Source: a virus. From it: DNA of 64,000 nt. This document shows, one piece after another, positions 4,275 to 62,807 of the stretch. How positions within the stretch are numbered: position 1 is the first letter of the stretch; the number at the start of each line of letters is the position of its first letter. The DNA is taken from the IMG/VR virus record IMGVR_UViG_3300025133_000030, positions 89,804 to 153,803 of that record. One strand, given 5' to 3'. Below the pieces are notes generated by a model. The model did no database searches. It had not been told where the DNA came from and was given only the letters and a program-made list of their open reading frames with translations. Position numbers and translations under genes: made by a program.

Positions 4275-4286
4275 CAGGTATACAAC

Positions 4287-12861: not shown

Positions 12862-12862
12862 A

Positions 12863-14500: not shown

Positions 14501-14501
14501 T

Positions 14502-14530: not shown

Positions 14531-14553
14531 GATTTCAACAATGAGGTCTTAAC

Positions 14554-15513: not shown

Positions 15514-17752
<2,239 letters not shown>

Positions 17753-17775
<23 letters not shown>

Positions 17776-18798: not shown

Positions 18799-18799
18799 G

Positions 18800-37107: not shown

Positions 37108-37130
37108 TTCTCCAATATTTATTCTTTTTC

Positions 37131-37137
37131 CTACTTA
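37131..37137 (+). promoter_or_regulatory. Candidate late promoter CTACTTA
   Basis: Intergenic, 17 nt upstream of ATG 37155, followed by GAGG RBS. Confidence 0.5.
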
Positions 37138-37154
37138 TATAGAGGACATAAATT

Positions 37155-38954
37155 ATGAGCAACTCCCGTAAGAACAATCTTTCGATAGATTACACCAGTC
37201 GCGACTTCGAATCAATACGAGAAGATCTTATTGATTATGTAAAAAGATATTATCCAAATACTCACAAAGACTTCAACGAAGCTAGTTTTGGAGCTATGAT
37301 GATAGACACCGTTGCATATGTAGGTGATATGCTGTCATATTATCTCGACTACAGTCTCAACGAGACCTTTCTGACAACCGCGTCAGAGAGAAAAAATGTC
37401 CTAAAGATAGGTCGCCAGCTTGGGTATACATCCCCTGCAGTTGCGTCTTCTGTCGGAGACGTATTTCTTTTCATAAATGTCCCTGCTAAATCTGATGGGT
37501 CGCTAGATTTATCGTATGCTCCTGTTTTGCGAGCGGGAAGTACGTTTGCAACAACCAATAGGAGCGTGTTTACTTTAATATCGGATGTTGATTTTTCAAG
37601 TGCACTCAATACTGTTGTCGTCGCAACCGTTGACGATACGTCTGGCATTCCCCTTAATTATGCAATTCGGGCCCCCGGTAGAGTGGTGTCAGGCGAACGA
37701 AAGCAAGAGACGTACACAGTAGGGTCAGTTGTTGATTTTCTTCGCTTAGAGATCGAAGATTCAAACGTGACAGACGTTATTTCAGTAGTAGATGAGGATG
37801 GCCATGAATACTATGAAGTGGAAGCACTGTCCCAAAACGTAGTGTACAAAGAAGTTACCAACAGGGGTGAGTTCAAAGAGATGGTGCCCTCGATCATTAG
37901 GCCTATTTCTGCACCTCGCCGTTATATCATAGAAAACGCCGGAGGCAGCACTTTTGTGCAGTTCGGCAAAGGTTCGGAAGAAGAACAAACAGCACAAGAT
38001 ATAGTGGATCCCTCAAACGTAGTTCTGGATATATATGGAAAGAATTATATAACAGACTTCTCTTTTGATCCGTCTAAGCTCCAGAGAACTGATAAAATGG
38101 GAATATCGCCATCAAACACTAAGATCTTTGTCACATACAGGACTAACAGCAATGGCAATTCGAATTGTGCCACTGGGGCGCTCAACGCCGTTTTAAGACC
38201 AATATTTAAGTTTGACAACAGGAATTCGTTGACTAGTGCAAATATCTCTTCTACAGCCGGCTCCCTAGAGGTAACAAACCCACAACCAATAGTTGGAGAT
38301 GTTACGACTCCAAACGCGGAGGAGTTGAGGCAGAGGATAATTGGCGTCCATGCAGCGCAAAATAGAGCAGTAACAAAGCAAGATTACATATCTTTAGCCT
38401 ATGCGATGCCTAGTAAGTTCGGCGCAATCAGACGATGTACTGTTCTGCGAGACGCAGATTCTGCAAAAAACAACTTAAATATGTATGTTTTAGCAGAAGA
38501 TACCTCCGGCGCTCTCATTGGAGCAAACAGCGCACTAAAAGATAATCTAAGAGTGTGGATAAACGGGTATAAAATGATATCTGATTCTCTAGACATTATG
38601 GATGCAAGAATAGTAAATTTAGGAATTAGATATTCTATAGTTTCGGATTCTAGCAGAGATTCAAATAAAATCTTAATTGATGCAAACGATGCACTACGAA
38701 ATGAGTTCGCATCCAAGATGGACATAGGCGAGCCATTTTATATTACAAAGATTTTCAAAACTCTTAGTAAGGTCGACGGAGTACTTGATGTTGAAAACGT
38801 AGAGGTAGTAACCAAATCAGGAATAGGATACTCAGACAACTATTTTAACATAAAGAAAAACACAACTCCAGATGGGAGAGTCATAGTTCCTAGGGAGGAT
38901 ATGATTTTCGAAATAAGAGATTTATTCACAGACATTGAAGGTTCTATACGATAA
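37155..38954 (+). CDS. Baseplate wedge protein (T4 gp6 / baseplate J-like)
   Basis: YTSRDFESIR, DFNEAS.G, AYVGD.LSYYLD, ETFL.TA, QFGKG, QNRAVTKQDY. Confidence 0.92.
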   Translation: MSNSRKNNLSIDYTSRDFESIREDLIDYVKRYYPNTHKDFNEASFGAMMIDTVAYVGDMLSYYLDYSLNETFLTTASERKNVLKIGRQLGYTSPAVASSVGDVFLFINVPAKSDGSLDLSYAPVLRAGSTFATTNRSVFTLISDVDFSSALNTVVVATVDDTSGIPLNYAIRAPGRVVSGERKQETYTVGSVVDFLRLEIEDSNVTDVISVVDEDGHEYYEVEALSQNVVYKEVTNRGEFKEMVPSIIRPISAPRRYIIENAGGSTFVQFGKGSEEEQTAQDIVDPSNVVLDIYGKNYITDFSFDPSKLQRTDKMGISPSNTKIFVTYRTNSNGNSNCATGALNAVLRPIFKFDNRNSLTSANISSTAGSLEVTNPQPIVGDVTTPNAEELRQRIIGVHAAQNRAVTKQDYISLAYAMPSKFGAIRRCTVLRDADSAKNNLNMYVLAEDTSGALIGANSALKDNLRVWINGYKMISDSLDIMDARIVNLGIRYSIVSDSSRDSNKILIDANDALRNEFASKMDIGEPFYITKIFKTLSKVDGVLDVENVEVVTKSGIGYSDNYFNIKKNTTPDGRVIVPREDMIFEIRDLFTDIEGSIR

Positions 38955-41248
38955 TGGCTATTCTTAGGTTTACTGCAAGTGCAGACAGCACCATAACAGA
39001 TTCATACAAGCCCGGTCTCACCATACGCGGTACCGGCTCGAACACTGGTGCAGCAGACACAGCTGAGGTTTTTTCAATATACGGTCAAACCAGCGGCTCT
39101 TCTGGTATCGGCACTTCAGTAGAGAGGTCCCGTGCACTATTTACATTCCCTGTTAACGATATTATAGCAAAAAGAACAGCAGGAACCTTGCCTGCTAGTG
39201 GTAGTGTTAATTTTTACTTGAAGCTGAGTAATGCGGTCCATGGAAACTCGCTACCAAAAGACTATGTCTTGGCGATATTGCCAGTATCTAGAAGCTGGAA
39301 TGAAGGAAGGGGTCTAGATCTGGATGAATACTCAAACTTAGGTGTAGTTAATTGGGAGTACGCAAGCACCGATGAGATTTTTGCTAGTGCTTCATTAACA
39401 TTTGGGGACGTAAGTATTTCCAACGGTGCCAAACTATACTTAACGGGATCTAGTGTTGACAGTCCGCACACATTTACAATTAACACTGGAATAGGCACGT
39501 CCACAAAAACTGATATAGCTTTGAACGGTTCCATCAACACAACTGCAAAACTAGCAACAGAACTATCCCGCTCAGTGGAGCTAGCCCGACTGGATGCGAC
39601 TATTGCATTAGATATTCAGCCATCTATTAATTCATCAAATAGCTCAAGGGTAGATTTAGTACAGAAAGTCGGCGGCTTTGCTGGAAATACAACAGTTCAA
39701 GGTACTGTAGTCGATGATACCGTAAGTGTGACAACGGTACAATTTACCGGCGGAGATGACAATACTCCGTGGAATGCTGAGGGCGGAGATTTCAAGACTC
39801 AAATGCCTGCAGTAATATACACACAACAGCTTGACGGCGGAGAAGAGGATGTTTCAATAGATATATCTGAAATGGTGGAGCAATGGATCATAGGATCAGG
39901 TCCATCTGCAGCAGGTTCTCTTAAGTTTAATGACGCGTCTATCGCGGACGGGACAACGCTGATATTGACGGGTTCTAATCCCCTGACTCCATTAACTCTA
40001 ACTTTCGATACTTCCACAGCGACATCTACAGCTACAGTCATCGGCGGCAACGGCGCTTCAAGTGCATCTACCGTCGCGACAAGGGTTCAGGAAGCCATCG
40101 CTGCAGCTAAAGCTGCGGGAACCACTGTTAATATCACAGCAACAGTCAACGGTTCTGACAACACAAAAGTAGATTTAGTTCAAGACGGAGCCGGCTCCGT
40201 GGGGAACACAATAATACAGGGAACATTGGTTGACGACACCACCAGTGTAACAACTACACAATTCCGTGGCGGCGGATTAGCAAATTATGGTCTTGTAATG
40301 AAAATGTCGGGGTCTTTTGAAGATGGCACAAGGACACAATCTTATTACACGAAGAAATTTTTTACTAGAAAGAGTCAATACTTTTATAAGAGGCCGTCGA
40401 TTGAAGCAAGGTGGGATTCTTCTACGGGTGACGACAGAAGTTACTTTTATACTAGCAGTTCGCTAGCCCCCGCTGCAGACAATTTAAACAACGTTTACCT
40501 TTACAATCATGTAAGGGGTCAACTGACCGACATACCAAACTTAGGCGCTGATAACAAAGTGTTCGTGAGTTTATTTACTTCATCTGCCGGCTCTATCGCC
40601 ACCGGCGGCCACGCTGTGCACCTCCCTGTAGGTGGCGGAGTTCAAAAGGCTCTTGGCCAACTGGTGACAGGATCTAGGGTTTCTACTGGTATTTATAGTG
40701 CTAGTTTTGCCTACACTGGCTCTAGTAGATTATACGATGTTTGGCGCACCGGCTCTGCAGCTCAAGTAAATGCCGGAACAGCCGGCTTTAGCGCTGTTTT
40801 TCACACAGGGACCATTGAACCAAAGCAGTTTGGTGCAGGAAATGTAAATTCATCGAATTATGAAAGCCCATATGTAACAGCTGTTCCCGGCTTTAGGCCA
40901 TCATACACCAACATGGGCACAGAAAGATTCAGAGTCACAGCTAGAAAGCGCTTTTGGAATCCCAATATTTACTCTGTGGCCAATCAGGCTACATCAGAAG
41001 AGATAGAAATAGTTAGAAATGGGTTTTATAAGATCTATAGAGTTTCTGATGATTATGTTGTTGTGCCCTATGGCACCGGCAGTATCAACCACACAAAGCT
41101 TTCATATGATCGAGACGGCAATTATTTTGATCTAGACATGTCTTTGTTTGAGCAGGATTTTGCATATGCAGTCAAGTTTGTATATTATGTAAATGGCAAC
41201 TATCACGAACAGCCAGAGGTCTTTAAATTTAGAGTTGAGGCAGTATGA
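38954..41248 (+). CDS. Virion structural protein; DNRLRE-like beta-sandwich interrupted by two copies of a ~120-aa module
   Basis: SRALFTF, SWNEG.G, W...GGDF, DISEMVEQWI and NYG motifs; internal duplication at 39383-39754 and 39908-40276. Confidence 0.7.
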   Translation: MAILRFTASADSTITDSYKPGLTIRGTGSNTGAADTAEVFSIYGQTSGSSGIGTSVERSRALFTFPVNDIIAKRTAGTLPASGSVNFYLKLSNAVHGNSLPKDYVLAILPVSRSWNEGRGLDLDEYSNLGVVNWEYASTDEIFASASLTFGDVSISNGAKLYLTGSSVDSPHTFTINTGIGTSTKTDIALNGSINTTAKLATELSRSVELARLDATIALDIQPSINSSNSSRVDLVQKVGGFAGNTTVQGTVVDDTVSVTTVQFTGGDDNTPWNAEGGDFKTQMPAVIYTQQLDGGEEDVSIDISEMVEQWIIGSGPSAAGSLKFNDASIADGTTLILTGSNPLTPLTLTFDTSTATSTATVIGGNGASSASTVATRVQEAIAAAKAAGTTVNITATVNGSDNTKVDLVQDGAGSVGNTIIQGTLVDDTTSVTTTQFRGGGLANYGLVMKMSGSFEDGTRTQSYYTKKFFTRKSQYFYKRPSIEARWDSSTGDDRSYFYTSSSLAPAADNLNNVYLYNHVRGQLTDIPNLGADNKVFVSLFTSSAGSIATGGHAVHLPVGGGVQKALGQLVTGSRVSTGIYSASFAYTGSSRLYDVWRTGSAAQVNAGTAGFSAVFHTGTIEPKQFGAGNVNSSNYESPYVTAVPGFRPSYTNMGTERFRVTARKRFWNPNIYSVANQATSEEIEIVRNGFYKIYRVSDDYVVVPYGTGSINHTKLSYDRDGNYFDLDMSLFEQDFAYAVKFVYYVNGNYHEQPEVFKFRVEAV
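39383..40276 (+). repeat. Protein-level internal duplication (two ~123-codon units)
   Basis: Unit 1 ends RVDLVQKVGGFAGNTTVQGTVVDDTVSVTTVQFTGG; unit 2 ends KVDLVQDGAGSVGNTIIQGTLVDDTTSVTTTQFRGG. Confidence 0.85.
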
Positions 41249-44200
41249 GCATTAAAAAGCATTTTGAAGAAGGCGCTCACTTGGTGAAGCCTTTCAAAAC
41301 TATCAAAGAGCTGACAGAAGGAGAAGTAGAATCTCCAGATTTCCTTAGAAATGTCGCAGACTCTCACAGAAGATTCCGCGCACCTCTAGATTATAGCACT
41401 GCGTCTAATTTTGTTAAGTTCGGAATGGCCGAAGATTATTATGTTGACTCAATCAAGAGAATATATAACACCTTTCCTTATGATGGTTCGCTGGCTGAAA
41501 AGCAACAATGGGAAAACGACTCGTCAGGCCTTGATCTATATCTATTAGAAAATGGATACCCACGCTCAACAGGTTATGCTATATTTAACCCTGCCAGTGC
41601 ATGGGTAGCTGCAGGTGGATCCCCTTTTGATAACAACTATGGTAAGCCAGCCACTATGGAGTATATATCTATAAAAGGTGGACCCAATTCAGACCCTGAT
41701 GAATCTAGCATAAGAAAGGTTTTTCCTGATTCTCAATTTTCAGGCTCAGCCAATTTATATAATACTGCCAGCTTTAGGGAGTCTAATCTAAAGATAGACG
41801 GCGCTCAAGGTAATACAGTTGAATTTTGGATGAACAAGTCTGCGATCTTAAATGACGACACGAAAACAAAAAGAGAAGTTATCTTTGACCTTCACAACGG
41901 CCAAGCTCAAAATAGCGCAAACTATGGACGGTTGAGGATTGAATTAAACGGCGCAGCCGTCGCTTCTCCTTTTTTGGTGACATATTTATCCGGAGCAATA
42001 AGCTCAAACGCAAATAACGATGTTGGGACAACTGTTGTTCCCAACCGCTTCGCGAATCAGGTGATTGGCTCCGGAATAACACCCGCTACGGTAGCTGACG
42101 GAAACTGGCATCATTATGCTTTTACTTTTGCCAATAGTGGAACAGCTGTCGAGAGCAAGTTGTACATAGATGGTCAACTAAACCACACATTGACGCTTGC
42201 TGATGAGTCTGTGGGCGAGGTTAGGTACGCACTACAAGGAACCATCGGAGCCTTGGCTACAATTCCTTACGAGGCAGCCAACGGCGCGATCGTGGCCACC
42301 ACCGGTTGGGGTAAACTGTCTGGATCTCTTGACGATTTTAGATTTTGGAAAACCAAGAGAACTTCAAAAGAAATTGGAAGAAACTGGTATTTCCCAGTTG
42401 GAGGCGGAACAAACACAGACACTTCAAACACAAAGTTGGGTGTATACTTCAAGTTCAACGAAGGCATCACAGCAGATGCTTCTACTGATTCAACTGTTTT
42501 GGACTATTCTGGTCGAATCTCCAACGGAACTTGGACAGGGTATTCTTCCAACTCACGAAACACTGGCTCAGCCTTTTTATCATCTAGTTATGGGTTTGCT
42601 GAGTTTGAAGATCCTATAGTTCATGCGTCGCACCCTAGTGTAACCAATTTCTTAAATGCATACACGGTAGAAGGTCAGGCTTACGACAGCACAAACAATT
42701 CTGCAATTTTTCATTCTTTGCCGCACTGGATTACAGAAGCTGACGAAAGAACAGGGAATACTCATCTTAGAAAGTTGACACAGATTATATCAAGCTATTT
42801 TGATACAGCTTTCGCCCAAATTGAACAACTAGGCAAAGTCAAAGATAAAGAATATGTAACAGGCTCCTTCGAAAAGCCCATAGCGATAATGGATGAGGTA
42901 CTCAGATCAACAGGGTTAGTCGTACCAGAGTTGTTTGTCGACGCTGAAATTATTGAATCTATAACAAACAGAGACGAAGGTAGACTCTATGAAACCGAAC
43001 TTAATGAAGTTAAGAATCTGATATACAAGAATATCTACAACAACATAAACTATATTTACAAATCAAAAGGTGCAGAAAAGTCTGCTCGAAACTTGATTCG
43101 ATGCTTTGGTGTAGATAGTGAACTTGTTGAGATTAATTTCTATTCTGATAACCACGATTTTGTGTTTGAGGACGACATAGAAGAGGTCTCCCTTAGGAAG
43201 AAATATATAGATTTTCACCATACAGCATCACATGGCGGCACAATATATAATTTTACAGAGACGAAAAACACGAATTTCGCGGGCTTTGTGTCTGGCACCA
43301 TCGCCGAAGTCGGAAACGGTGGACTTGCAACAACGACAGAAGCAGAGTTTATATTCCCGAGAGAATTCGCAGACCACGGTCAAGAAGAGACTCTCCGAGG
43401 CGTCAACACTCTCTTGTCCTCTTCTCTGTTTGGTTGCCATACTCCAGTTACAACTACTGGCAAGTGGGCAGCAGCAGCCTCCGATGCTTCCAATTTCCAA
43501 GTGCTGTGTGTGAGAGAATCTTTAACAGGGCCAAATAGCAGAAATGCAAAATTCATGCTAGTTTGTGATCACGGACAAGAAGGTGGCCCTCGATATATCG
43601 GTGCAGGCGGCGATAAGACTGGAGCGGTTCAAACTGGAGAACTTACAAGTTCTTACTATCAAGATGTTTTTGACAATCAAAAGTGGAATTTTGCAGTAAG
43701 AATAAAGCCACTAGTATTTCCTATGGCGAACATGCTCGGTTCAGTTTCTGCTGCTCCCGATTATATTGTAGAATTTGTCGGAATGAATTGCGATGCAGGC
43801 TACATAACAGAGCAGTTTACACTGACGGCTTCAGTGGGGAAAGTAAAAGCCAAAAGCCTAATATCGTCAGCTAAAGGCTTTTATCTTGGAGCACATAGGG
43901 ATGACTTCAGTGGCACCCTGTTAACTGGTTCAGATTGCCGCGCTGGAGGCCTAAGACATTGGTTATCATATCTCGATAACGATGAAATAAAGGCCCATGC
44001 GATATCACCCGACAATGTCGGTGTAAGTATGCCCGGAAAGAACTACTTCTCCTTCGAGGGCCACGGAGCTGCTGTATCGAACAAGGGCAATGTTGAGGTG
44101 CCAAAGATAGACACTCTGGTGTTGAATTGGGACTTTAATGATGTAACCGGTTCCGCGACAGATGGAACTTTCGCAGTTAGGGATATTTCAAGAAGCGGTT

Positions 44201-47200
44201 CGACCAACGGCCTGTTCTCAATTGATAGCAAGTACGCCAGACTAGAGAACATATTAAGAAAAAATCATGCTGCACGAGGCCTCGGTTTTCCAGCAAGTGA
44301 TACTAAAAATATCGCAGATGTAAATTATGTGTACTCTGCTAGAAAAAAACTGCCAGAAAGTATTGCCGGCGCGGACATGACAAAAGTATTAACAGATGAA
44401 GAAAGGCTATTCAGAAGAGATTTTAAGCCAAAGAAATATTATGCATATGTTGAAAAGAGTATGTACAACTCAATTTCTAAAGAGATGCTCAAGATGTTCT
44501 CTTCCATCAAGGACTTCAATAATCTTGTTGGGTCACCAGTAAACAGATACAGGCAAAGCTACAAAGCGTTAAACAAATTAAGACAACTATTCTTTGATAG
44601 GGTCGACAACACACCAAGTATAGAGAAGTATTTAAATTTCTATAAGTGGATAGACTCATCGATCACTATAATGGTCAGTCAGCTGCTACCAGCCTCTCTT
44701 GCTAGCTCTGAGGAATTAAGGGACGTCATTGAGAGTCACGTACTTGAGAGAAATAAGTATCGCTCTAAGTTCCCAACTGTCATAAGAGAAAATGCAGAGT
44801 TTGAAACAACGGTAAGAAACGCCGGCGATGCCCCAGAGTGGGGAATAGGCACTCCACAGTTACCCGGATCTGCACCAGATCAAAGCAAAAAGGCCGAATG
44901 GTGGAAGACTCGTGCTGAACGTGATCGATCTCACGGCGGCCCAGATAGCTCCAATTCTGTAAATTTGGGTAGCGGAAACAGCGCAGTTGATTCCAATCGC
45001 GAATCCATTAGGAGAATCGCCGCGAGAAAGATAAAGGGCTTAGGGTATCTTAAGAAATCAACACCAAGTCCCGGTCGCCTCTATATTAATAAAGAAGAGC
45101 TGTATACAGGAGGCTCAAACAGTCATATAAACAGAAAGCCAGATTTCCACAGGCCATTCACAAAAGCTACAGCTCAAAACGATGGCCAATTAACCGCGAC
45201 GACCTCTATATCTTCATCTTTTATTAACAATGACCCAAGAACAGGCAAGGAAAAGATAAATCATACAATAGAGTTAAATGCCGCAGCCGAAAAACAGATA
45301 CCAAATGATAGAGGCTATTCTGAAGATATGCCTAGCGGCGAAAAATATGTTCCATTTTCATTCTACAGTTCCTCACTAGACAATGTAAATTATCTAAGCT
45401 CAGTGCATCTTTTCCAGCCAGCTTCGGATATTACAAACATCCATATGGACCACTACGGTCCAGACTATCAGATACCCATGCAGGGCCCGTTCACTGAAAC
45501 TCACGTTGGCGGAAACCAACACAGGCATATCCCGATTAATACAACTTCTGGATCTACATCAGCAGAAATAGGCAAAGCACCCTTCGTAGCACTAGACCAC
45601 GCAACGAGCCGGCCAGAAGCATATAAGTTGATGTTTACTTCGAATGGCTTCAAGTTAAAAGCACCAGATATTCCTGCAACTCTTTTTAGAGACGAGACAG
45701 CCAAGAGGCCAGTTAACATAAGGAATATAAAAACAAGTTCGTCCGGCAACCACAACACTGCTGGCAACTACGAAAAAGATTACCAGATAATATCCACGAA
45801 TGGGAGAGACACTAATAATAGATATTTCACTCGGGCTCAGTCTGATGCAAGCTTGGTTTTTGATTTGGATTCATCAAATATAATACAAAACCTTAATGAT
45901 TCTCCAATCTTTTTGACCATGCATGATCATGCAAAGATTCGCTGGGATAATTTGCAGACGGATCACGTCTTTGTAACTAGGTTTTCTCCCTTGGGCGCCC
46001 CAGAAACATCTGGAGATGCTCTCGGAGGTTATGGGTTAGACCATAGGAGTTCTCAATATTCTATATATAGTTCAATAAACTATAGGAATGAATTAGCGAG
46101 AAGTCTTGTAAACAACAAATCACAAGATCATGTTAATCAATTTGGTTTTGATTCTTGCGTTGTTTCTTCAATTGAGGGCTCGATGGTAAATGACGTTGAC
46201 GGTATCCTCGATGGCATCGATTATCAAGATGATTTCACCCTTGCAGAACAACCTCTTCGAGGTTACTCTTGGGCCCCGAATTATTTACAAAATGTTGGTG
46301 ATTGCATATCCACAACTACGGTGAGAGGGTTTTATTACGAACCTCTGACTGTCGGCTACAAGAGATTGGAAGATGGTTCTTTTTCTAGCGCCGGCGTAGA
46401 CAAGGTTCTCAGAGGAAATCAAGCCGCACCGATACATAAAACTAACAGAAATGCTGAATATTACTATGATTTAAGCGAAGCTAAAACGAAAAAGAAGTAT
46501 GATAACTTCTTTGTACAGCATCAGATACCAAGAAGCGACTTGCAATATTCTTGGATAACTGGCTCCGCCGCCACCGGGTTTACCCGGACCGCATATTACT
46601 TTGGCTTCACTAGGGACTGGAAAACAGACCGCGATACTATAAAATGGCTCCCCAAAGCTGAAGAATTTGGAAATATAGTTCTATCAACCACTCCAAATTA
46701 CGGTCTCGCAGTGTTGGGCAGCACATACGAAGCCAACGCTTATTATGTTGATTTTACGGGCCTGAACACCGTTATCGTAGATAGGCCCGATACCGTTAGT
46801 ACATCAACGTCCTCCGGCGCTAATACTTTGAGTTCAGGCATTGCAGCTGTTGCTTCATATAGTTGGATTTCATCTTATTATCGCGATTACGAGACATTTT
46901 ACAATCCAGATATTTGGGGTTATGGTACCAATACAAGTATCTATGCAGATTCAAACACCATCGGGGTTACTGCCACTGGAAAGACCCTTAACGCAATTCT
47001 CTTGAATCGCAACGGGCCGTATGGGTACCCAACATGGAAACAGATCAGAACTGGTGAGACTTCTTTAATAGCTAGAAATATGAAAAAGGACAACAGAATT
47101 TCTGTCGCCTCAATTAGGACAGAGAGCGTTGTAGGTTCGCAATCCGACAAAAAAGAAATAGTCACATTCGAGAATTTCTTCGAGGCACCGTTATCCATCT

Positions 47201-51297: not shown

Positions 51298-51300
51298 GAT

Positions 51301-52416
51301 ATGAGTTTTTTTAACAAAAAAGAAGAAGTAATAGATTTTGAACTAACCCAACACGGCAAAAGGCTTTTGTCGATAGGGAAGTTGAATCCTGTGTTCTATT
51401 CTTTTTATGATGACGATATTATTTATGATGTGACTCATGTTTCAACGGGTTCGCACCCGACGCCGCCTAGGAATAAATATCTGGAAAACCAAAAAGATAT
51501 AAACAATAGAGTCTTCGATTCAATTCGAACAAAAGTGCAATATAATTTTGCGGGGGTAGAAACAAACCACAACGTAAACCCGTTCCCAATGTTGGACCCG
51601 TATTCCAATCAGGCAACTTTGGGAAACATAATGTTATATGACATGTCGGATCCTGCAGTTTCTTCCCCTCAGCCATTTATGGTCCATCAGGATAAATTTG
51701 AAAGAAATTATGCGCTAGGTATGCCAATCGGAAACTCTAGTCCTGCTCATAAGTTTGCTCCATCTTGGGATATACAAATAATAAATGGACAAATGATAGA
51801 CTCATCGAGAACTTTGAATGAATATATGCATGCCGAGACCGGCAAAGATATAGGTAATAAATTTAGAATACCACAACTTAATATAACCATGTCCTTCGAT
51901 TTGACGATTCACAACATGAGCGTAGATGACCCTATGATATTGGAAGACCTAGCAGAAGAAAAGGGGAATTTAGTTCAAACATCTCATGTATTCGATGACG
52001 GTAGTTTTCTAAAGGTTGAAGGTCCGCCGTTGATGTTAAAGGTCGAGGAGCACAACGTTTCTTTGATGGAGGAACAGTTTGATATCGAAATATTTGAAAT
52101 CATAGAAGGACAGCTACCCGAAAGCGATAATATAGTTCCAGTAGATTTGATACCACTTTTAGCTAGGACGAGCAGAGTTGACCCAGCAAGCAACACTGTC
52201 AGTCACTATTTTGAGGTGCTGGCCGACGATCAATTAGATGTGGATTCGCTGCCAATTTTTTCTCAAACGCATCTTAGTTCAGCGCAGCTTAGGTCCGCGT
52301 TCGAGTCTAGGGTCAACCCATACACTCAGATCCAGTCAACAGGGAATATTAGAGAGAACTCATCTCTGGAAGATATATATAGAAATCCGTCCGAAGAAGT
52401 GGAGGATTGTGATTAA
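51301..52416 (+). CDS. Putative virion protein, paralogue of 58719..59702
   Basis: N-terminal D..LT..GK.LL...F.D..I.Y motif shared with the 58719 ORF. Confidence 0.65.
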   Translation: MSFFNKKEEVIDFELTQHGKRLLSIGKLNPVFYSFYDDDIIYDVTHVSTGSHPTPPRNKYLENQKDINNRVFDSIRTKVQYNFAGVETNHNVNPFPMLDPYSNQATLGNIMLYDMSDPAVSSPQPFMVHQDKFERNYALGMPIGNSSPAHKFAPSWDIQIINGQMIDSSRTLNEYMHAETGKDIGNKFRIPQLNITMSFDLTIHNMSVDDPMILEDLAEEKGNLVQTSHVFDDGSFLKVEGPPLMLKVEEHNVSLMEEQFDIEIFEIIEGQLPESDNIVPVDLIPLLARTSRVDPASNTVSHYFEVLADDQLDVDSLPIFSQTHLSSAQLRSAFESRVNPYTQIQSTGNIRENSSLEDIYRNPSEEVEDCD

Positions 52417-55400: not shown

Positions 55401-55445
55401 ACAATGAACTATTCTTTTACGAATAGTACGAAGGCAGGATACTGA
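52416..55445 (+). CDS. Hypothetical 1009-aa protein (probable virion component)
   Basis: Long ORF, TAATG-coupled, inside the structural module; no family recognised. Confidence 0.7.
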   Translation: MLVNSDNISSLSSRAFIKQISVDLQSSGELASLRSRDPHILTSDSAKSSSQTGLSVSLDLVIKASRQLANHLVSPNKMMESYLRNLKIRVLKVDSDASKKMIVSRLTQIGASSPETLKKLKIEHRDVRLYDLLPMDGVSRLKKITSDTFGPTDVEMYNLTTRVTFDMGSTNPSHLSFIAFTCSEKSKTVSPYSCDTVFVDSTIPSETYIMLDSNNAIWLDRATRCRNNKYVKWSRGRYNQFLNALASLITSPPVKKRTSLYTSYRMELLPLMQGTTEPLLAISKMLTKWKERNPSTSAGDLYNRSKDLYNSFISSESTLIRRRIAVTKIKDFRPIRTLIKKSKRMEYNNSISTPVTPFQTSYDFGIEKFVADKKVRNSNFSELFLSTEMTGDVNGFFAMDYMAMLKSEISFIRRYQKLSSVILDFCPLLAMTIVRRRVEDNATGIMGLGRKSHRLMKQGISKEETIVGFYGPSGTSAKIEGSNPRGSLKEEQLSVAGQNNDIRYFTFKDRDIARIANGSYQYGVEFVFADNTVGIPRSHISKIKSIKSTLQEYQAQCSSVSNHDISTGRITSAIAPKSKELKELINGYISTMEYLNLVSPNSVSAKGIYNLIAPRIGTLSGIALFLEAVDGLASMLQDSIGSKESASSSTRDATANFYSSAARTRNNKLIKIKKFFNTTVNASETMMPHYEYMPTISEGSNMPSISVSAFSSTYALSRVPAAVCSMGEKTLIGSEVRFVGSSTDAEKRESEEAELRNLGLSIINHSFFKSMTAGKNGLMYNSLNLKEKASLNLEHLNANNSYTYFDTKTSKEAAEMSNEEKASYDTSIRHYFGLGDSAVHKVDTERENHPEAAIIGQTNLFEQPSEVFVGGEITSQLLMAYRSQARGVETFSGFVTDPKGKPLLKKAIFAPLGKISDSNTRMFCRIAPPQISSTRPDFATKRLTLPVHKEYFMINPDNSSPMVARFSQEMRDYFKDESRLATVNEQEYISVGSIQTMNYSFTNSTKAGY

Positions 55446-55446
55446 A

Positions 55447-58400
55447 ATGGCAGACAGATATCTACCACGCGCGCTGGGATCAAACACATTGATCAATGTC
55501 CTGCGACAAGGACCAACAGCAACAGCTTTAAGAACAGGTACTGGTTTGAGACTGGAACAAGGGATAGATGCATCGGCGTTCCAAGCAAGCTTGAGGACTC
55601 CACCAAGAGCAGAAGAGCCATGTGTCGACCCAATCACTGAGGAGTTCGACGAACGCGAAGAGTCCCAAGAAGAAGAGGTGTTGGAAATTCACGAAGAGCA
55701 AATAGATCCCATCTCCGACGCCGACACGGCAGCCTCAAGGATCCTTCGAATTGTCTCATCATCTAGGACAAGAGTTGCCCCAAATCAATCATTCGACGCT
55801 AGTGCTGACCCAATCATGTTAGGAAGTAATTGCATGTTTTACGTCTTTCCGGAGGTGGAAAACTCCTTAACAGACGTTGAGGGCGCTCTCTTATATGGTC
55901 AGTCGATAAGTTATAAAAGCCCTTCAGTTCGTCGAGACATGCATGTAACGTTCAAGAACCCGTTCGACCAGCGGTATTCCAGCTATCGCGCTAAACTGAG
56001 TATTCTTGCAGATGCTCAAGAATCCATTAGTAGAGATGTTCTGACGCTTCATGACCATAAAAGAACTCTAGAAGGGCTACCTTCTTATATGAATGGCCCT
56101 CATTTTGGGCCCAACCGCGACCGGGTACAAGTATTCGGCAATGGAACTGGGCAGGCTGAGTTTCACGTATTGAAGATGAATCTTAGCGACGAATCCAGTA
56201 TGATCATCTCCAATCCCTTCACCCTCGCGTCGAGGGAAAATTGGAAAGAATACAAGAGGGAGTTGCTTTCTAGGCTCTTTGGAAATGATAGTGTGAGTAG
56301 AATATATAGCTACACTAATACATCTTTTGAGACACCAATAAGTCATGCCAATAGGAGGTTCGTCGAAGAAAGCAACCCTAAGATAGCCAAATATCAGGCA
56401 GCATACAACTTCTATAATGCATCATACGAGCCTACAATATCCGGTCCAAGTAGAGGTATACCACACCACTTGCTGCCCAGTATTTATATGTTTGCAACAG
56501 AACTTTTCTCAGCCGGCTCCGGTGCAGCCAATCATCGCACCGGTGACGGAGATCTGCTATCAGAAGATCAAATACCGCTTGGTGTTAAGAGATTTATAAG
56601 GCTTGGAGATTTCACGACCAAGGCGCGAATACCAAATATATTTCGCGACATCGAATCCGGCGGCGATAACCCTAAAAAAATAGGTGAGTCTTCAGAGGGT
56701 CAATATTATCAAAGTTGGGCAAACACAATTATGTCGTTAGGTTCGGATGAATACTCAGGACTAGTCGAGTCTTATAACACTTATAAAAACTTGATTTATG
56801 TATCATCAGATAAAGACAAGGGGATGAAAACAAAGATAAACAATATTTCCAGATTCGTCCCGATGTATACAGAAGTAAGATTTGATGATAAGGCAAAGGC
56901 CTCTTCGATGGCTAGTGTTATGTCAAATATGACCCACGAAAATGTCGCCGCTTGTGACGCACTATTCGCATCCGACGTTGTAAGTGCTCTTTCTCGCAAT
57001 AGCGGTAGAGAGAATTTTATCGAATCCTTTTCCGTTGAGATAGAAAGGGAAGAAGAAAAAAGATCCGAATCTAAAGTTCAAAATATCTGGAGAAATTATT
57101 ATGACCTAGAGCGTTGGTTTGAACACTACAGCAAATACGATGGCGATGGCAATGACCCGTACGCACAGGCTTCAACATGGGCGGACCGCGATGAGTCGTA
57201 TATCGTAGGCGAATCGTTGGCGATACGAGCGGTCACAAGAGAATCCGTAGACGGCCGAGCCGCGGCGTCTAACTTCTTGCACGATGGAGTTCTAGCATCT
57301 GAAGAAGCGGCACTCAACCTGAAGCGCGAACATGGCTTATCATACATAGATATGTGCAACGGGAAAAGAACCCACTCAGAAGTGTTGATGTACCGGATAG
57401 ATAAACATGTTGTTATGAGAACTGGTGAGCCGGAACCTGAACCTGTACAAAGTTTCTATATCACTCCCGGCGCTGAGCCAGACGACGGAACCGGCGTAAG
57501 CGGCGTAAGCGGAATAAACAGAGAGATAAGGTATTTAGACTCTCAGGTTAAGTTTGGAGAAAGGTATATATACAAGATCTTTGCACATTTGTTGGTGGTT
57601 GGCATGGACTACATGTATTTCGACCACACACACATGCCAGAGGATCTCTTTACTGTCCATCCCGGAAACAGAGATGAGTACATTTTAGCAGTGACATACC
57701 CAACGTTGAATGTGTATGAGGTGCCGTACTTTAACTCACACGAGTCCATACCAGAAGATAGAGTTCTTGTCACTTCTATTATGGACAACCCGCCGCCCTC
57801 ACCTCAAGTTGAGGTAGTTCCATATGTTAATATAGACAACAAGATCGGTATAAGACTTGAAGGCTCTATAGACGATTATGTTGCATCTCCAATAATGTTG
57901 AGAGATGGAGACGAAGAAGCATACCAGAGAATTTCCGAGTTTCAGAGAGATTTTCTTGATTCGATCGAAAGGAATACTATTACTTCACCGGGAACTGAGG
58001 CAATACGTTTCCGCGCTGATGACGTTGTTTCTGGGTTTGAGATTTTTAGGACAACCACTCCCCCTCGATCGTGGCAACACTTTAGGGGCAAACTGTTGAC
58101 AACCGTCTCTACCGGTGGTATGTCTAATTCCTTCTTTTATTCTGACGACGTCACCCCTAACACGGATTATTATTACACGTTTAGATCAACAGACATTCAC
58201 GGAAACACATCGAACCCTTCTCCGATATATAAAGTTAGAATGGTTAACGATGCTGGTTTAATCTATCCGATAATAGATACAGTAGCGTTGTCAGATCAAG
58301 TAACGGAAAAGGAAGAATCATACTCATCGAGCATGAAGAAGTACCTTAGTATAGCGCCTGTCGCTCAGCAGATGGTTCTAGACATGCAAGAAACTCAAAT

Positions 58401-58632
58401 GCTACGAACAGCTCAAGCCGAACAAGGCGATGGCGGAGAAGCTCTCAATTATGTGAATGTTAAAGAAAATGGCCAAACCACAGTGATTCTCCCTGCAGAT
58501 CAAAAGTATAGAATTGGGACAACGGGCCCCGAAGGAAAGAAGTTCAAAATAAGATTGACCTCTAAGTCTTCTGGCAAGAAACTTGATTTAAATGTGTTTT
58601 TGAAAATTAAACAGGAAACAGAACAACAATAG
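55447..58632 (+). CDS. 1061-aa putative virion protein with C-terminal fibronectin-III-like motifs
   Basis: YLDSQVKFGERYIYKI and DDVTPNTDYYYTFRSTDIHGNTSNPS are FN3-like strand patterns. Confidence 0.6.
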   Translation: MADRYLPRALGSNTLINVLRQGPTATALRTGTGLRLEQGIDASAFQASLRTPPRAEEPCVDPITEEFDEREESQEEEVLEIHEEQIDPISDADTAASRILRIVSSSRTRVAPNQSFDASADPIMLGSNCMFYVFPEVENSLTDVEGALLYGQSISYKSPSVRRDMHVTFKNPFDQRYSSYRAKLSILADAQESISRDVLTLHDHKRTLEGLPSYMNGPHFGPNRDRVQVFGNGTGQAEFHVLKMNLSDESSMIISNPFTLASRENWKEYKRELLSRLFGNDSVSRIYSYTNTSFETPISHANRRFVEESNPKIAKYQAAYNFYNASYEPTISGPSRGIPHHLLPSIYMFATELFSAGSGAANHRTGDGDLLSEDQIPLGVKRFIRLGDFTTKARIPNIFRDIESGGDNPKKIGESSEGQYYQSWANTIMSLGSDEYSGLVESYNTYKNLIYVSSDKDKGMKTKINNISRFVPMYTEVRFDDKAKASSMASVMSNMTHENVAACDALFASDVVSALSRNSGRENFIESFSVEIEREEEKRSESKVQNIWRNYYDLERWFEHYSKYDGDGNDPYAQASTWADRDESYIVGESLAIRAVTRESVDGRAAASNFLHDGVLASEEAALNLKREHGLSYIDMCNGKRTHSEVLMYRIDKHVVMRTGEPEPEPVQSFYITPGAEPDDGTGVSGVSGINREIRYLDSQVKFGERYIYKIFAHLLVVGMDYMYFDHTHMPEDLFTVHPGNRDEYILAVTYPTLNVYEVPYFNSHESIPEDRVLVTSIMDNPPPSPQVEVVPYVNIDNKIGIRLEGSIDDYVASPIMLRDGDEEAYQRISEFQRDFLDSIERNTITSPGTEAIRFRADDVVSGFEIFRTTTPPRSWQHFRGKLLTTVSTGGMSNSFFYSDDVTPNTDYYYTFRSTDIHGNTSNPSPIYKVRMVNDAGLIYPIIDTVALSDQVTEKEESYSSSMKKYLSIAPVAQQMVLDMQETQMLRTAQAEQGDGGEALNYVNVKENGQTTVILPADQKYRIGTTGPEGKKFKIRLTSKSSGKKLDLNVFLKIKQETEQQ

Positions 58633-58647
58633 TTTGAAAAAGAATAC

Positions 58648-58689
58648 GGCGTAAAATATTTTAAAACTAGAACAATTTGGCGTAAAATA
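58648..58689 (+). repeat. 11-bp direct repeat GGCGTAAAATA x2 (31-bp period)
   Basis: Copies at 58648-58658 and 58679-58689 in an intergenic gap, immediately 5' of CTAATTA. Confidence 0.8.
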
Positions 58690-58696
58690 CTAATTA
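58690..58696 (+). promoter_or_regulatory. Candidate late promoter CTAATTA
   Basis: Intergenic, 22 nt upstream of ATG 58719, followed by GAGGAG RBS. Confidence 0.5.
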
Positions 58697-58718
58697 AAAA
58701 AAGAGGAGTTTATTATAA

Positions 58719-59702: not shown

Positions 59703-59712
59703 GGTATAAATA

Positions 59713-61047
59713 ATGGCAACTTCTTTTAAGACTTTTTTAAACAGCGACATAACAACAACAAGAACCCTCTTACACGAAGCCGTGCCTATTACCGGAGCGG
59801 TTCTCTCTGGGACCTATGAGCACCACAACGGCAATGGCGTCCCTGCAGGTTCCGGTGGCACCGGAACAGATAAAACTCAAGTAAATCAGAAGACTTATGC
59901 CCATGGTATGTTTTCTTCTATTTATGACTATCCCTACTTAAGTTCTTCTGCTAATCATATTATAGACGTCACGGCTGGATTTTCAAACGCTTCCGGTTTT
60001 AGCGGTAGTACCCGAGGCGACTCTGGCGTAGCCACTGTCCAAAACGCAAAAAAAATAAATATATATAATCAAATGGCTCAAATGCTAGCTGGCTACGACG
60101 AAAGTGGAGCTATTAGGGATTTTGATATAGATGGAAATCATTCATCAACTGTTGGAAAAATGAAAGAAGTTTACTTTATAAACTTTTCTAGGCTGTTGAC
60201 AAAGGATGAAATCAAGAAGGGTTCATTTAATTTAACTTTAGCGGTTTCGGGTGGTTTCACAGAGAAACCTAGGACCTCTGCTCAACACACTGAGCACGCA
60301 AAGCTTGTCAAGCTAACGGACGCCTCTGGGTCTAACGGGTTTAAAACAAACTCTCCCGCTGGAGAGTATGGTATTCTTTTCGCCACTGGATCAGCAAACG
60401 CCGCCGCAGCACAGGTTGTTGGCCAACAAGTTGACGGTGTTGGAGATCTCCATTCAGATCCCATTTCGCAAAAAACCATGGCCGCCGGAGGAACCTCTAA
60501 TGCGAAGCCCGCGGGCCTGATTTTCTATCAAGCCGGCATTGCAGTCGTCACAGCATCTATTTTCAACACTGCATCGGTAACTAATGGGGCATACACAAAC
60601 AACGAGGGCATGGGCCTCCTCGAACCCGCTAACGTCTGGAAAGGCACCGGTGTGGACGGCGCTTTGGTTGGAACACAAGTTATTCAGATGGATGGCGATG
60701 GTCACGGTGTAGATAATCGTTTCTCTTACGGTACAATAGCGCAAAACGCGGAATCACTGATGCATAGGATCACTGACATCAGCTTTAACAACACAACAGA
60801 GCTTAACTCTACTGTATATTTCTGTCGCGCAAACCACAACGAGTTCAACTACTCTTCAAATCCGACATATCTAGCTGACAGCAAGATGGTCGTAAAGAAC
60901 AGCACACTAGACTCACCAGTGACTTACTTGACAACTGTAGGCATGTATTCTGCCAACAATGAACTTCTTGCTGTTGCTAAGTTGAGCGAGCCTATCAAGA
61001 AGGATCCAACAAACGAAGTAACCTTGAGGGTGAGGCTAGACTACTAA
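59713..61047 (+). CDS. Putative tail/baseplate structural protein
   Basis: C-terminal TTVGMYSANNELLAVAKLSEPIKK; Gly/Ser/Thr-rich; paralogous C-terminus to the next gene. Confidence 0.65.
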   Translation: MATSFKTFLNSDITTTRTLLHEAVPITGAVLSGTYEHHNGNGVPAGSGGTGTDKTQVNQKTYAHGMFSSIYDYPYLSSSANHIIDVTAGFSNASGFSGSTRGDSGVATVQNAKKINIYNQMAQMLAGYDESGAIRDFDIDGNHSSTVGKMKEVYFINFSRLLTKDEIKKGSFNLTLAVSGGFTEKPRTSAQHTEHAKLVKLTDASGSNGFKTNSPAGEYGILFATGSANAAAAQVVGQQVDGVGDLHSDPISQKTMAAGGTSNAKPAGLIFYQAGIAVVTASIFNTASVTNGAYTNNEGMGLLEPANVWKGTGVDGALVGTQVIQMDGDGHGVDNRFSYGTIAQNAESLMHRITDISFNNTTELNSTVYFCRANHNEFNYSSNPTYLADSKMVVKNSTLDSPVTYLTTVGMYSANNELLAVAKLSEPIKKDPTNEVTLRVRLDY

Positions 61048-61058
61048 GGAGTACTAGC

Positions 61059-62807
61059 ATGGCACTACACAGGTTCGGCCCAGACGACATATTCAGAAAC
61101 ACAATACGAACTTACCCTGAGCAGGTTTTGTACGTCTATAAGGGCGTAACATATCGAGAAGGGGAGGTGAATTTAACTGGATCCGACAACATGGGCGCAT
61201 CAATTGCGACTGGCTTTATGCACAAACCTTCGGGCTCAGTCAGTCTATATGAGTTGAACATCGACCGCGCTCCACCTACTCATGCCGCAACCGCTCTGCT
61301 GCAGTTTACCGATAAACCACTCGACGGTCAGCAGATCACCATAATTTCTTCCGATGGAACGTCGCTGGCATATATGGCCAAAAACGCTGGCGAGGTTCTT
61401 GGTGATCGATCTTTTGACAATTCAGGGACAGTAAAAGCCGCAGCTCAATCCCTCAGGAATTGTATTGAACACGCTAGTGGTCATAACGGAAAAATTTTAG
61501 TGTCGGAGATACAACCACACGAACCCGATGATTATATAATAGTTTTAACTCAGCAAGTTCCCGGGTCAGATGGCAATAAGAATATTGTACACAATCTTGC
61601 AAATGTAAACGTAAAATCTGTAGCCTTCTTATCTGACTCAACTTTGGCGAATGTAGCCAGCTTCTCTAAGGGTAGCGACCCGGCCGAAACAAATTTGATA
61701 TACCCCTTTATAGAGGCCCCTCAACCCGGCCAGACCCGCCCAATATTCAAGACAGTGTCTAGGTCTGGAGGTGATACGAGCGATGGATATATTGGCTCAT
61801 ACCCACTTACTGCAAGTATAACAAGACAATACTACACAGATGATCGATCCACAAGAGAGAAATCAATAAGAAGGCGAGTAAACTCTTTGTGTGTGGCGTT
61901 GGATTCTTATAGTGTTTTTAGTCCGCATTTTGCGCACAATAGCGGATCTGCAGATGTCAAGTGGGACAAGAGCGTTCAAGAAATGTCTCTAATCAGTATA
62001 CCTTCTATATTTTATGGATCGTCAATAAGGAGAGGAAGTGTTAACCTAGACTTTATAATCGACGGTGTCACAGTTGCTCGACTTAACGACGAGAAAGAAA
62101 ACGGAGAATTAATACAAGTTTCTGGATCCAATGAGACCGGCTCTGTCGGCGGTGTGGTTTTGTACAATCATGGCTTTTTGATGTTGACAGGTAGTTGGGA
62201 TGTGTACGCCGCGAACGAAGGCGAGACGTATACTCTTGCAGATACTGACCTGAACGGTGCCCTAAATTCCGTGACCCCAGCATGGAAATACTTCGGAGCT
62301 GGATTGACTGAGGTTAACTTAGAGAGGAAAACTAAGAAAACAGGCCAAATAATTGATGGAGCAGACGAGGTGATTGAAGTCCCCACCGCCCCCAGAGAAC
62401 AAGAGATAGACGTGACTAGGCTTTCTTATTCTGGCTTGTCGGATGTATCGTTTAAAATATCCTTTCAAGGTACTCAAGAAATCAATACTATTACGATGTT
62501 GTCGCATGCCAAGCGAGGCAAAGTCAACCACTCAAATAACTCAACGTTCTTGCAATCTGGATCCTTCATGGATAACCCTCCGATTGCTGGATCCACTGCT
62601 TATATTGAATTTCCCGAAATGGTAATCAAAAACACTGTTTCTTCTTCATATGTCGACCCCACTGGGTCGTTCGAAAAACAGACTTTCATATCAAAGGTCG
62701 GAATTTTTGACAAAGACAAGAATCTTCTTGGCATAGCAAAAATGGCAACACCAGTTAAGAAAACTCAAAACAGGAATTTAACATTTAAGATCAAGATGGA
62801 TGTTTAA
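61059..62807 (+). CDS. Putative tail/baseplate structural protein carrying an inserted ~130-aa module
   Basis: C-terminal SKVGIFDKDKNLLGIAKMATPVKK; G.V.Y..G motif shared with the 59713 ORF; AGGAG RBS. Confidence 0.65.
   Translation: MALHRFGPDDIFRNTIRTYPEQVLYVYKGVTYREGEVNLTGSDNMGASIATGFMHKPSGSVSLYELNIDRAPPTHAATALLQFTDKPLDGQQITIISSDGTSLAYMAKNAGEVLGDRSFDNSGTVKAAAQSLRNCIEHASGHNGKILVSEIQPHEPDDYIIVLTQQVPGSDGNKNIVHNLANVNVKSVAFLSDSTLANVASFSKGSDPAETNLIYPFIEAPQPGQTRPIFKTVSRSGGDTSDGYIGSYPLTASITRQYYTDDRSTREKSIRRRVNSLCVALDSYSVFSPHFAHNSGSADVKWDKSVQEMSLISIPSIFYGSSIRRGSVNLDFIIDGVTVARLNDEKENGELIQVSGSNETGSVGGVVLYNHGFLMLTGSWDVYAANEGETYTLADTDLNGALNSVTPAWKYFGAGLTEVNLERKTKKTGQIIDGADEVIEVPTAPREQEIDVTRLSYSGLSDVSFKISFQGTQEINTITMLSHAKRGKVNHSNNSTFLQSGSFMDNPPIAGSTAYIEFPEMVIKNTVSSSYVDPTGSFEKQTFISKVGIFDKDKNLLGIAKMATPVKKTQNRNLTFKIKMDV

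Follow-up and report, generated by a model that had tools for sequence, protein, structure and literature searches.

A selected Ser/Thr-Gly-Ser motif on the outward-facing tail proteins of Far-T4-type myoviruses, and its possible role as an O-glycosylation acceptor site

We examined a 64-kb window (positions 89,804 to 153,803) of the 153.8-kb IMG/VR contig IMGVR_UViG_3300025133_000030, which is 85% complete and which, on sequence comparison, comes from an uncultured, marine, T4-like phage of the Far-T4-type myoviruses, the group that includes Rhodothermus phage RM378, Flavobacterium phage immuto, and Microcystis phage Mel-JY01. Several tail and baseplate proteins encoded in this window are rich in the tripeptides Thr-Gly-Ser and Ser-Gly-Ser (together [ST]-G-S), and the comparisons described below show that [ST]-G-S is a short linear motif under selection, order-specific, and present clade-wide on the outward-facing tail parts of these phages. 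The best single explanation that we can offer, although we hold it tentatively and would place it somewhat below an even chance, is that the motif may be the acceptor site of a phage-encoded O-glycosylation system read by a pair of GT4-family glycosyltransferases (GTs) whose genes lie in the same window. An initial annotation of this DNA had proposed such a role for the wider pattern [ST]-[GAS]-S. The phage is assigned to the Far-T4 group on the basis of its T4-type gp25, gp6, and sheath, and of its closest cultured relatives. The best phage matches of gp6 are in Mel-JY01 (33% identity) and immuto (31%), over 98% of gp6, and the conserved core of the sheath is 40% identical to that of immuto and 29% identical to T4 gp18. 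The proteins on which the argument turns are as follows, with window coordinates, strand, and observed against expected [ST]GS counts.

38954..41248, + strand: 764-aa peripheral baseplate protein, encoded directly downstream of gp6; 10 against 1.79
41245..51297, + strand: 3350-aa giant baseplate or fibre protein; 15, dispersed, against 4.30
59713..61047, + strand: 444-aa tail protein; 3 against 0.77 (p=0.04), a weak enrichment
61059..62807, + strand: 582-aa tail protein; 8 against 0.88
contig positions 42-3323, at the other contig end and outside the window: 1093-aa tail sheath; 8 against 2.0
36691..38954, + strand: gp25-like and gp6-like proteins of the inner baseplate wedge (Pfam GPW_gp25, PHROG baseplate wedge); 0 in both
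25166..36676, + strand: 3836-aa giant, motif-poor; 1 against 3.04
52416..58632, + strand: 1009- and 1061-aa fibre-like proteins; 0 against 1.33 and 0 against 1.00

Expectations were obtained for each open reading frame (ORF) from 5000 composition-preserving shuffles, and the first five proteins listed, including the sheath, were also treated as a pool. None of the 5000 shuffles reaches the observed count for the 764-, 3350-, or 582-aa protein, and a ranking of all 184 ORFs of the contig by [ST]GS is headed by these three, with the tail sheath fourth. In the pool, 44 sites are seen against 9.7 expected (Poisson p ~8e-16). The enrichment reported in the initial annotation thus survives the per-ORF shuffle control that had been set for it beforehand, and the hand counts on which it was based proved exact on recounting: TGS 7, SGS 3, and SAS 3 in the 764-aa protein, with 0-2 of each other order of T, G, and S; TGS 4 and SGS 4 in the 582-aa protein; TGS 8 and SGS 7 in the 3350-aa protein; ATGS, FSGS, ASGS, and VTAS in the 444-aa protein; one TGS in the 3836-aa protein and none in the 1009- and 1061-aa proteins. 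The sites are also dispersed rather than tandem, as had been stated, and occur as single tripeptides tens to hundreds of residues apart, being located at residues 27, 47, 82, 164, 339, 452, 572, 588, 599, and 708 of the 764-aa protein and at residues 40, 58, 295, 355, 360, 377, 500, and 535 of the 582-aa protein. For the 3836-aa giant, even the wider pattern [ST][GAS]S is found only 2 times against 9.03 expected, with 99.86% of shuffles containing at least 2.

The excess is specific to the order and identity of the residues. Across the five proteins the other orders (TSG, GTS, GST, STG, and SGT) occur 4-7 times each against 4.4 expected, and the near-variants [ST]GT, [ST]GA, [ST]GN, [ST]GD, AGS, NGS, and DGS are all present at about their expected frequency. 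Because the enrichment of [ST]AS and [ST]SS in this genome is weak (1.8x and 1.5x, respectively), we take the core motif to be [ST]-G-S; the originally proposed [ST]-[GAS]-S therefore holds for glycine at the second position, and alanine or serine at that position is no more than weakly favoured. A scan of all tripeptides in the five proteins places TGS first (3e-10) and SGS second (2e-7), with the next at 4e-4, a ranking that is partly circular because these proteins were picked for their [ST]GS content. Low-complexity effects were controlled by shuffling within blocks of 20 or 40 residues, which gives 10.3 +/- 3.1 sites against the 44 observed (shuffle maximum 22, z ~11), and a first-order Markov model, a null that already absorbs the dipeptides of the motif itself, predicts 22.7. 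At the nucleotide level the 44 sites correspond to about 40 distinct 9-mers whose codon usage is ordinary; this diversity rules out a DNA-level motif and places the signal in the protein.

Repeated modules were likewise ruled out as carriers of the motif. An all-against-all BLAST comparison of 11 virion proteins finds only two shared modules, neither of which contains a site: the homologous C-termini of the 444- and 582-aa proteins, and an inserted module of about 115 aa (37% identity) common to residues 76-190 of the 582-aa protein (window 61284-61628) and residues 167-277 of the sheath. This insert is missing from homologues of the 582-aa protein, the majority of which are about 400 aa long. 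The 764-aa protein, according to its structural model, contains two copies of an inserted alpha/beta module (residues ~142-240 and 321-410), each with one TGS. An origin of the counts in composition, low complexity, internal repeats, or a DNA-level signal could draw on these two copies and on the richness of the carriers in S, T, and G (~7-11% each); it is refuted, and to our minds practically excluded, by the near-expected counts of the other residue orders, by a block-shuffle z of ~11, by a count twice the first-order Markov expectation, by the variety of codon strings, and by the location of all but 2 of the 44 sites outside recognisable repeated modules.

Larger families of homologues carry the same signal. 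Metagenomes supply more than 1200 homologues of the 764-aa protein, many of them from marine samples such as Tara, and in 119 of these TGS is enriched 9.0x and SGS 5.6x, with the other orders at 0.6-2.1x; 118 homologues of the 582-aa protein give 9.6x and 4.6x for TGS and SGS, respectively. Some sites are essentially fixed. In the 764-aa family the columns at query residues 27, 82, and 708 show the motif in 101-114 of 120 sequences, and the fixed columns of the 582-aa family are those at residues 377 (110/120), 360 (102/120), and 245 (80/120). Other sites turn over: the columns at residues 588, 599, 618, and 721 of the 764-aa family have the motif in 54-84 of 120 sequences (5-84 for the non-fixed columns overall), TGS and SGS each occur at 40 alignment columns, of which 21-23 hold them in at least 3 sequences, as against 20-31 columns, 4-9 of them in at least 3 sequences, for the other orders of T, G, and S, and TGS is still enriched 3.4x in weakly conserved columns. 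Within motif columns, the first position is T or S in 85-92% of cases, the second is G in ~80% and then S or A, and the third is S in 76-83%, with T being rare. These alignments, in which some sites are fixed and many turn over, show selection acting on the motif itself and not on a few inherited positions. Orthologues in 80 related contigs agree, with a pooled enrichment of 6.8x for the 764-aa protein and of 4.6x for 80 orthologues of the 3350-aa protein (1169 against 253.8). Conversely, the 79-81 orthologues of gp6 and gp25 contain [ST]GS 13 times against 34.5 and 0 times against 4.2, respectively, and those of a 339-aa protein 0 times against 5.6, perhaps implying depletion from these proteins, a reading that is suggestive rather than proven because the orthologous sequences are related to one another.

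The cultured members of the clade show the motif in the corresponding proteins. The baseplate and fibre proteins of immuto contain TGS 28 times against 6.6 and SGS 34 times against 7.9, its 1053-aa tail spike has 26 [ST]GS against 5.9, and an excess is also present in its sheath, with 7 sites, and in a structural-module protein of 373 aa, with 12. For the tail proteins of Mel-JY01 the figures are 21 against 3.1 (TGS) and 30 against 4.7 (SGS), and RM378 exhibits a weaker excess, 53 against 19.9 genome-wide (2.7x). Homologues of the 444-aa protein are found in all three phages. The homologous baseplate proteins of immuto and Mel-JY01 both have a high motif density, mostly at different positions. 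Capsid, portal, and tube proteins of immuto, Mel-JY01, and RM378 are not enriched, the capsid and tube proteins of the first two containing 0-1 motif, which is about the expectation. Five myoviruses of other lineages, namely T4, S-WAM1, Pseudoalteromonas phage XG4, Streptococcus phage GXN1, and Agrobacterium phage Atu_ph07, show no order-specific excess, T4 having 7 [ST]GS against 8.4 in its baseplate and fibre proteins and 20 against 29.1 genome-wide. These five phages rule out a general property of myovirus baseplates and fibres. In the Mel-JY01 record (635-4591) there are, in addition, two S/G/T-rich low-complexity ORFs of 805 and 508 aa, where tripeptides of T, G, and S abound whatever their order, a distinct phenomenon.

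The predicted structures are compatible with exposed positions of the sites. In AlphaFold2 (AF2) models of the 764- and 582-aa proteins (pLDDT 76 and 64, respectively), 17 of 18 motif glycines are in coil (9/10 and 8/8), compared to a coil background of 62-65%, and 5-7 of the 18 sites, depending on the criterion, begin where a beta strand ends or just past it; low-confidence loops hold several of the sites. Residues -4 to -1 relative to the sites are enriched in hydrophobic side chains (0.41-0.48 against 0.30), and no more extended consensus is seen. Foldseek matches the 764-aa model only to generic Ig/FN3 folds and has no significant hit for the 582-aa model. The sheath is about 430 aa longer than T4 gp18, and all eight of its [ST]GS sites are N-terminal to the conserved core (residues 780-1093). 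Taking the sheaths of this phage, immuto, and Mel-JY01 together, 19 of 19 sites fall outside the C-terminal core that aligns to residues 334-653 of gp18. In the gp18 structure, the aligned core faces the tube and the remaining domains point outward. Within the tail, the motif is thus confined to predicted exposed parts: the peripheral baseplate, the fibres, and, in the sheath, the outer domains.

The candidate enzymes are encoded in a conserved nuclease-GT4-GT4 core followed by a variable set of sugar genes.

3414..4274, + strand: PD-(D/E)XK nuclease, first gene of the core (Pfam PF12705, E=4e-14)
4287..5549, + strand: GT4-1, a 420-aa retaining GT-B enzyme and candidate priming enzyme (PF00534, 50.0 bits against a cut-off of 26.4)
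5546..6835, + strand: GT4-2, a 429-aa glycosyltransferase that begins just before GT4-1 ends (PF00534, 22.5 bits, under the cut-off)
6836..20879, + strand: variable island of soluble sugar-synthesis and tailoring enzymes (Pfam matches)

GT4-2 counts as a GT4 member only by virtue of its orthologues and its catalytic motif because its Pfam score is under the cut-off; orthologous GT4 ORFs in related contigs exceed that cut-off. The EX7E motif is present in both enzymes, as EGFGLATLE at residue 287 of GT4-1 and as EGFGLPIFE at residue 278 of GT4-2, and the form E-G-[FWY]-G-x4-E is found in both GT4s of this phage, immuto, and Mel-JY01. Orthologues of GT4-1 exist in immuto (32% identity), Mel-JY01, RM378, and LR756508, a 484-kb uncultured phage, and orthologues of GT4-2 in immuto and Mel-JY01; none is found in LR756508, and in RM378 the position after GT4-1 is taken by a 425-aa ORF whose catalytic motif is degenerate. 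The gene order nuclease, GT4-1, GT4-2 is kept in window 3414-6835, in the immuto record at 48008-51927 (our loci L082/L122), and in the Mel-JY01 record at 81375-86302, and LR756508 keeps the nuclease and GT4-1 (L129:5691-8749). Linkage of the nuclease to GT4-1 spans very distant phages. The Mel-JY01 orthologue of GT4-1 (PP395634, 83447-84932) is apparently split into two adjacent ORFs annotated as putative glycosyltransferases, the 302-aa C-terminal part of which keeps EX7E. Among 22 related long contigs, a tandem pair of ~420-430-aa GT4s is present in 21, including all three that are at least 90% complete, and the only one without the pair is a 47%-complete fragment. A tblastn search with GT4-1 and GT4-2 of 50,697 phage records finds full-length relatives only in the Far-T4 group, from which it follows that T4, S-WAM1, XG4, GXN1, and Atu_ph07 do not have the pair. 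Both GT4s fall in Atlas clusters that are 87-100% viral.

The 16.6-kb sugar cluster (4287-20879) contains five GT genes together with methyl-, acetyl-, amino-, and carbamoyltransferases. Its island part encodes GT2, UDP-GlcNAc 2-epimerase, GT-D-like, GNAT, DegT, FkbM methyltransferase, GT11, and carbamoyltransferase proteins, as well as four SDR epimerases/dehydratases, a cupin, a PfkB kinase, and a cytidylyltransferase, most of which this phage does not share with immuto, Mel-JY01, or RM378. At the same position immuto has a different 8-kb set, composed of a GT2, two WecE-type aminotransferases, a methyltransferase, a mannosyltransferase, a "pilin glycosylation protein", an epimerase, and a WcaA-type glycosyltransferase. 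If a surface glycan were under diversifying selection, a layout of this type, a conserved priming pair followed by a hypervariable tailoring island, would be expected.

On the acceptor hypothesis, the conserved, phage-specific GT4-1 and GT4-2, both apparently catalytic, would put the first one or two sugars on the Ser/Thr hydroxyl of [ST]-G-S in an exposed loop just after a beta strand, acting in the cytoplasm on folded or assembling tail proteins. The adjacent nucleotide-sugar enzymes, further GTs, and methyl-, acetyl-, amino-, and carbamoyltransferases would then extend and decorate the glycan, and since the island differs between phages, each lineage would have its own sugar coat on the tail. 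Some support for a link between motif and enzymes might be sought in LR756508, where GT4-1 is present without GT4-2. Four of its baseplate homologues pool only 5 [ST]GS against 1.6 expected, compared to 24 against 2.8 and 17 against 3.1 for the corresponding proteins of Mel-JY01 and immuto, respectively, and many sites of the latter align to unrelated residues in LR756508. This contrast is suggestive only, because alignments at 25-30% identity are shaky and because immuto and Mel-JY01 themselves share few positions. Possession of a GT4 gene does not by itself entail the motif: Pontimonas phage phiPsal1 and Synechococcus phage S-CBS4 have no [ST]GS excess, ruling out a general property of GT4-bearing phages. 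Both are siphoviruses that carry, in the head module, a compact cassette of a GT4, a second GT, which is a GT2, and an S-adenosylmethionine (SAM) methyltransferase (L126:6979-9351 in phiPsal1 and L127:9916-12282 in S-CBS4), a layout reminiscent of the glycosylation cassettes of mycobacteriophages.

The GT4 enzymes might instead act on DNA. Like the alpha- and beta-glucosyltransferases of T4, which place glycans on hydroxymethylated bases, the enzymes described here are soluble phage GT-B proteins, and a nuclease gene adjoins them. However, no match to a ThyA-like hydroxymethylase (PF00303) is seen in the 85%-complete contig, nor one to TET/JBP (PF12851), the latter being a weak negative in that control genomes also gave none. 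CCWGG is entirely absent from the 64-kb window, against 78.4 +/- 8.9 in dinucleotide-preserving shuffles, and such strong avoidance of an EcoRII/Dcm-type site would be unexpected if cytosines were hypermodified throughout. Moreover, analysis of immuto DNA by liquid chromatography with ultraviolet detection and tandem mass spectrometry (LC-UV-MS/MS) found only dA, dC, dT, and 7-(formylamino)methyl-7-deazaguanine (fdPreQ1), and no glycosylated nucleoside (PMC10516641). Since immuto has the orthologous GT4 pair, this composition makes DNA an unlikely acceptor. The sugar cluster also shows little sign of membrane-linked glycan assembly: with the exception of a 110-aa Mpo1-like ORF, none of its proteins contains a 19-residue hydrophobic window, and Pfam searches of the cluster detect no flippase, polymerase, ligase, or priming phosphoglycosyltransferase family.

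Several observations weigh against a role for [ST]-G-S as a glycosylation acceptor. The capsid proteins of the relatives are unenriched, the 1009- and 1061-aa fibre-like proteins are serine-rich and yet free of the motif, and the remaining proteome does not avoid it (24 [ST]GS against 27.4 expected). The best-conserved sites lie inside strongly conserved blocks, as would be the case for a structural or assembly element. On the enzyme side, a phmmer search of all PDB chains with GT4-1 returns BshA, B736L, a sucrose-phosphate-synthase-like protein, and GlgA, of which BshA and the sucrose-phosphate-synthase-like enzyme, its nearest solved relatives, act on small molecules or sugars; the same search with GT4-2 gives nothing below E=0.2, and no known protein O-glycosyltransferase is among the matches of either. 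Peripheral glycosyltransferases that have no exporter of their own can act on host lipid-linked glycans, and such glycans or small molecules are possible acceptors of the GT4s. Literature searches turned up no glycoprotein staining or mass-spectrometric glycan data on virions of this clade. Finally, the co-occurrence of TGS/SGS enrichment with the GT cluster that the initial annotation called for is seen, in that all clade members examined carry both the motif and GT4 gene(s) while the five control myoviruses without the pair show no excess, but it amounts to roughly one evolutionary event because all positive phages belong to one clade.

The main rival explanation, which we regard as unlikely without dismissing it, is that [ST]-G-S is a strand-exit or ST-turn element of the beta-sandwich and insertion domains of tails, inherited and re-invented for folding or assembly, and that the GT4 pair and its island serve an unrelated purpose such as remodelling of host envelope glycans or synthesis of a small glycoside. 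An ST-turn needs S or T at its first position with glycine next, and the motif is indeed in coil, often directly after a beta strand; the fixation of the strongest sites in conserved blocks across more than 100 homologues, the kinship of the solved GT4 relatives to enzymes other than protein glycosyltransferases, and the restriction of the signal to one clade would all be natural on this view. It accounts less well for the near-expected frequency of turn variants such as [ST]GN, [ST]GD, [ST]GT, NGS, and DGS, for the occurrence of the motif in many proteins that have no BLAST-detectable similarity (the two modules that are shared hold no sites), for positions that turn over among homologues while density is kept, and for the fact that the beta-rich baseplate and fibre proteins of the five other myoviruses show nothing comparable. 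In addition, residue 27 of the 764-aa family, one of the fixed sites, is in a segment that AF2 leaves unstructured, and residue 82 is in a confident loop just before, rather than after, a strand. A different reader of the motif, such as a kinase, an acyl- or nucleotidyltransferase, a tail-assembly chaperone, or a partner on the host surface, would be served equally by the evidence for selection, exposure, and clade-specificity, which names no reader by itself, and two hydroxyl residues flanking a glycine would suit other O-linked modifications too. We nevertheless consider it improbable, given that no such enzyme was seen to co-vary with the motif and that the sole conserved candidate found is the GT4 pair beside the sugar island. 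Glycosylation of [ST]-G-S by this pair remains, in our tentative judgement, the best of these readings.

To our knowledge, some actinobacteriophages are the only phages whose particles have been demonstrated to be glycosylated, and we know of no sequon defined for them. Virion glycosylation in mycobacteriophages is the closest demonstrated system, and in both cases phage-encoded cytoplasmic GTs and methyltransferases would glycosylate structural proteins of the particle; as in that system, GTs and tailoring enzymes are found here without export machinery. According to the part of PMC12619734 that cites Freeman et al. 2023, mycobacteriophage glycans have been located chemically at the C-termini of capsid and tail-tube subunits. 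Sites, target proteins, and enzymes differ in the present case, for which the candidate acceptor is a dispersed tripeptide on sheath, baseplate, and fibres, and the capsid and tube proteins of the relatives are unenriched.

Other protein glycosylation systems resemble the phage cluster in part. Autotransporter heptosyltransferases of bacteria (the BAHT family; TibC/TibA, Aah/AIDA-I) are cytoplasmic and act on a folded, beta-rich protein, at whose surface they modify many serines, and the PfkB kinase, cytidylyltransferase-like protein, and an SDR epimerase of the window could make a nucleotide-heptose. No BAHT-family enzyme is found here, however, and the heptose genes are not common to the motif-bearing relatives. 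The initial annotation had pointed instead to the streptococcal GtfA/GtfB O-GlcNAc system (with GtfC and the GT-D enzyme dGT1), with which the cluster shares a GT-B/GT4 pair, S-x-S-like acceptor serines, and a GT-D-like gene. This analogy does not hold up: EX7E is intact in both phage GT4s, which leaves no inactive partner of the GtfB type, no GtfA/GtfB match is seen among solved structures, and the phage sites are single and dispersed, unlike the long SASA-type tandem repeats of serine-rich streptococcal adhesins. The GT-D-like gene, moreover, is absent from immuto, Mel-JY01, and RM378, all of which show the motif. Finally, chlorovirus PBCV-1 provides a precedent for autonomous, soluble, virus-encoded capsid glycosylation with atypical sequons and methylated sugars (PMC4691112), and its glycosyltransferase B736L is among the solved relatives of GT4-1 (E=7e-7). 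PBCV-1 glycans are N-linked to the major capsid protein of a eukaryotic virus, however, whereas here we consider candidate O-linked glycans on phage tail proteins.

Were the acceptor hypothesis correct, an abundant aquatic clade with hosts in the Bacteroidota and Cyanobacteria might run its own cytoplasmic O-glycosylation, with [ST]-G-S as sequon, priming by the GT4 pair, and hypervariable islands that give sheath, baseplate, and fibres a lineage-specific glycan coat, a proposal that we advance with the same reserve. Virion glycosylation would then be predictable from sequence in thousands of marine and freshwater phage genomes, and a function would be at hand for the large sugar islands, to which remodelling of the host surface is usually ascribed. 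Such coats would suggest shielding or targeting of the tail, for example against proteases, grazers, host defences, or non-productive adsorption, and the motif could offer a compact tag for glyco-engineering. The sequon idea is directly testable because three cultured phages (immuto, Mel-JY01, and RM378) share the motif. Even a structural motif would mark exposed tail surfaces in this lineage with unusual sharpness.

Almost all genes of the window are on the + strand, in the order PhoH-like gene, PD-(D/E)XK nuclease, sugar cluster, M23 peptidase, 3836-aa giant, gp25, gp6, and motif-bearing proteins. Pfam and PHROGs give no match for most of the tail proteins. The 3350-aa protein has a ConA-like lectin domain at residues 270-377 (Pfam Laminin_G_3, E=1e-7), and the region of the 1009- and 1061-aa proteins has a weak PHROG match to "central tail fiber J". 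For the 3836-aa giant encoded between the M23 peptidase and gp25, Pfam likewise gives no match; the protein contains a hydrophobic stretch near residue 1439. The T4-type late promoter TATAAATA, which might have informed on the timing of the GT genes, occurs at 7 sites against 4.7 expected, an uninformative difference. Lastly, a 225-aa ORF at window 2460-3137 has a sub-threshold match to the zincin-like ATLF family (E=0.001, 19 bits against a cut-off of 27.4).

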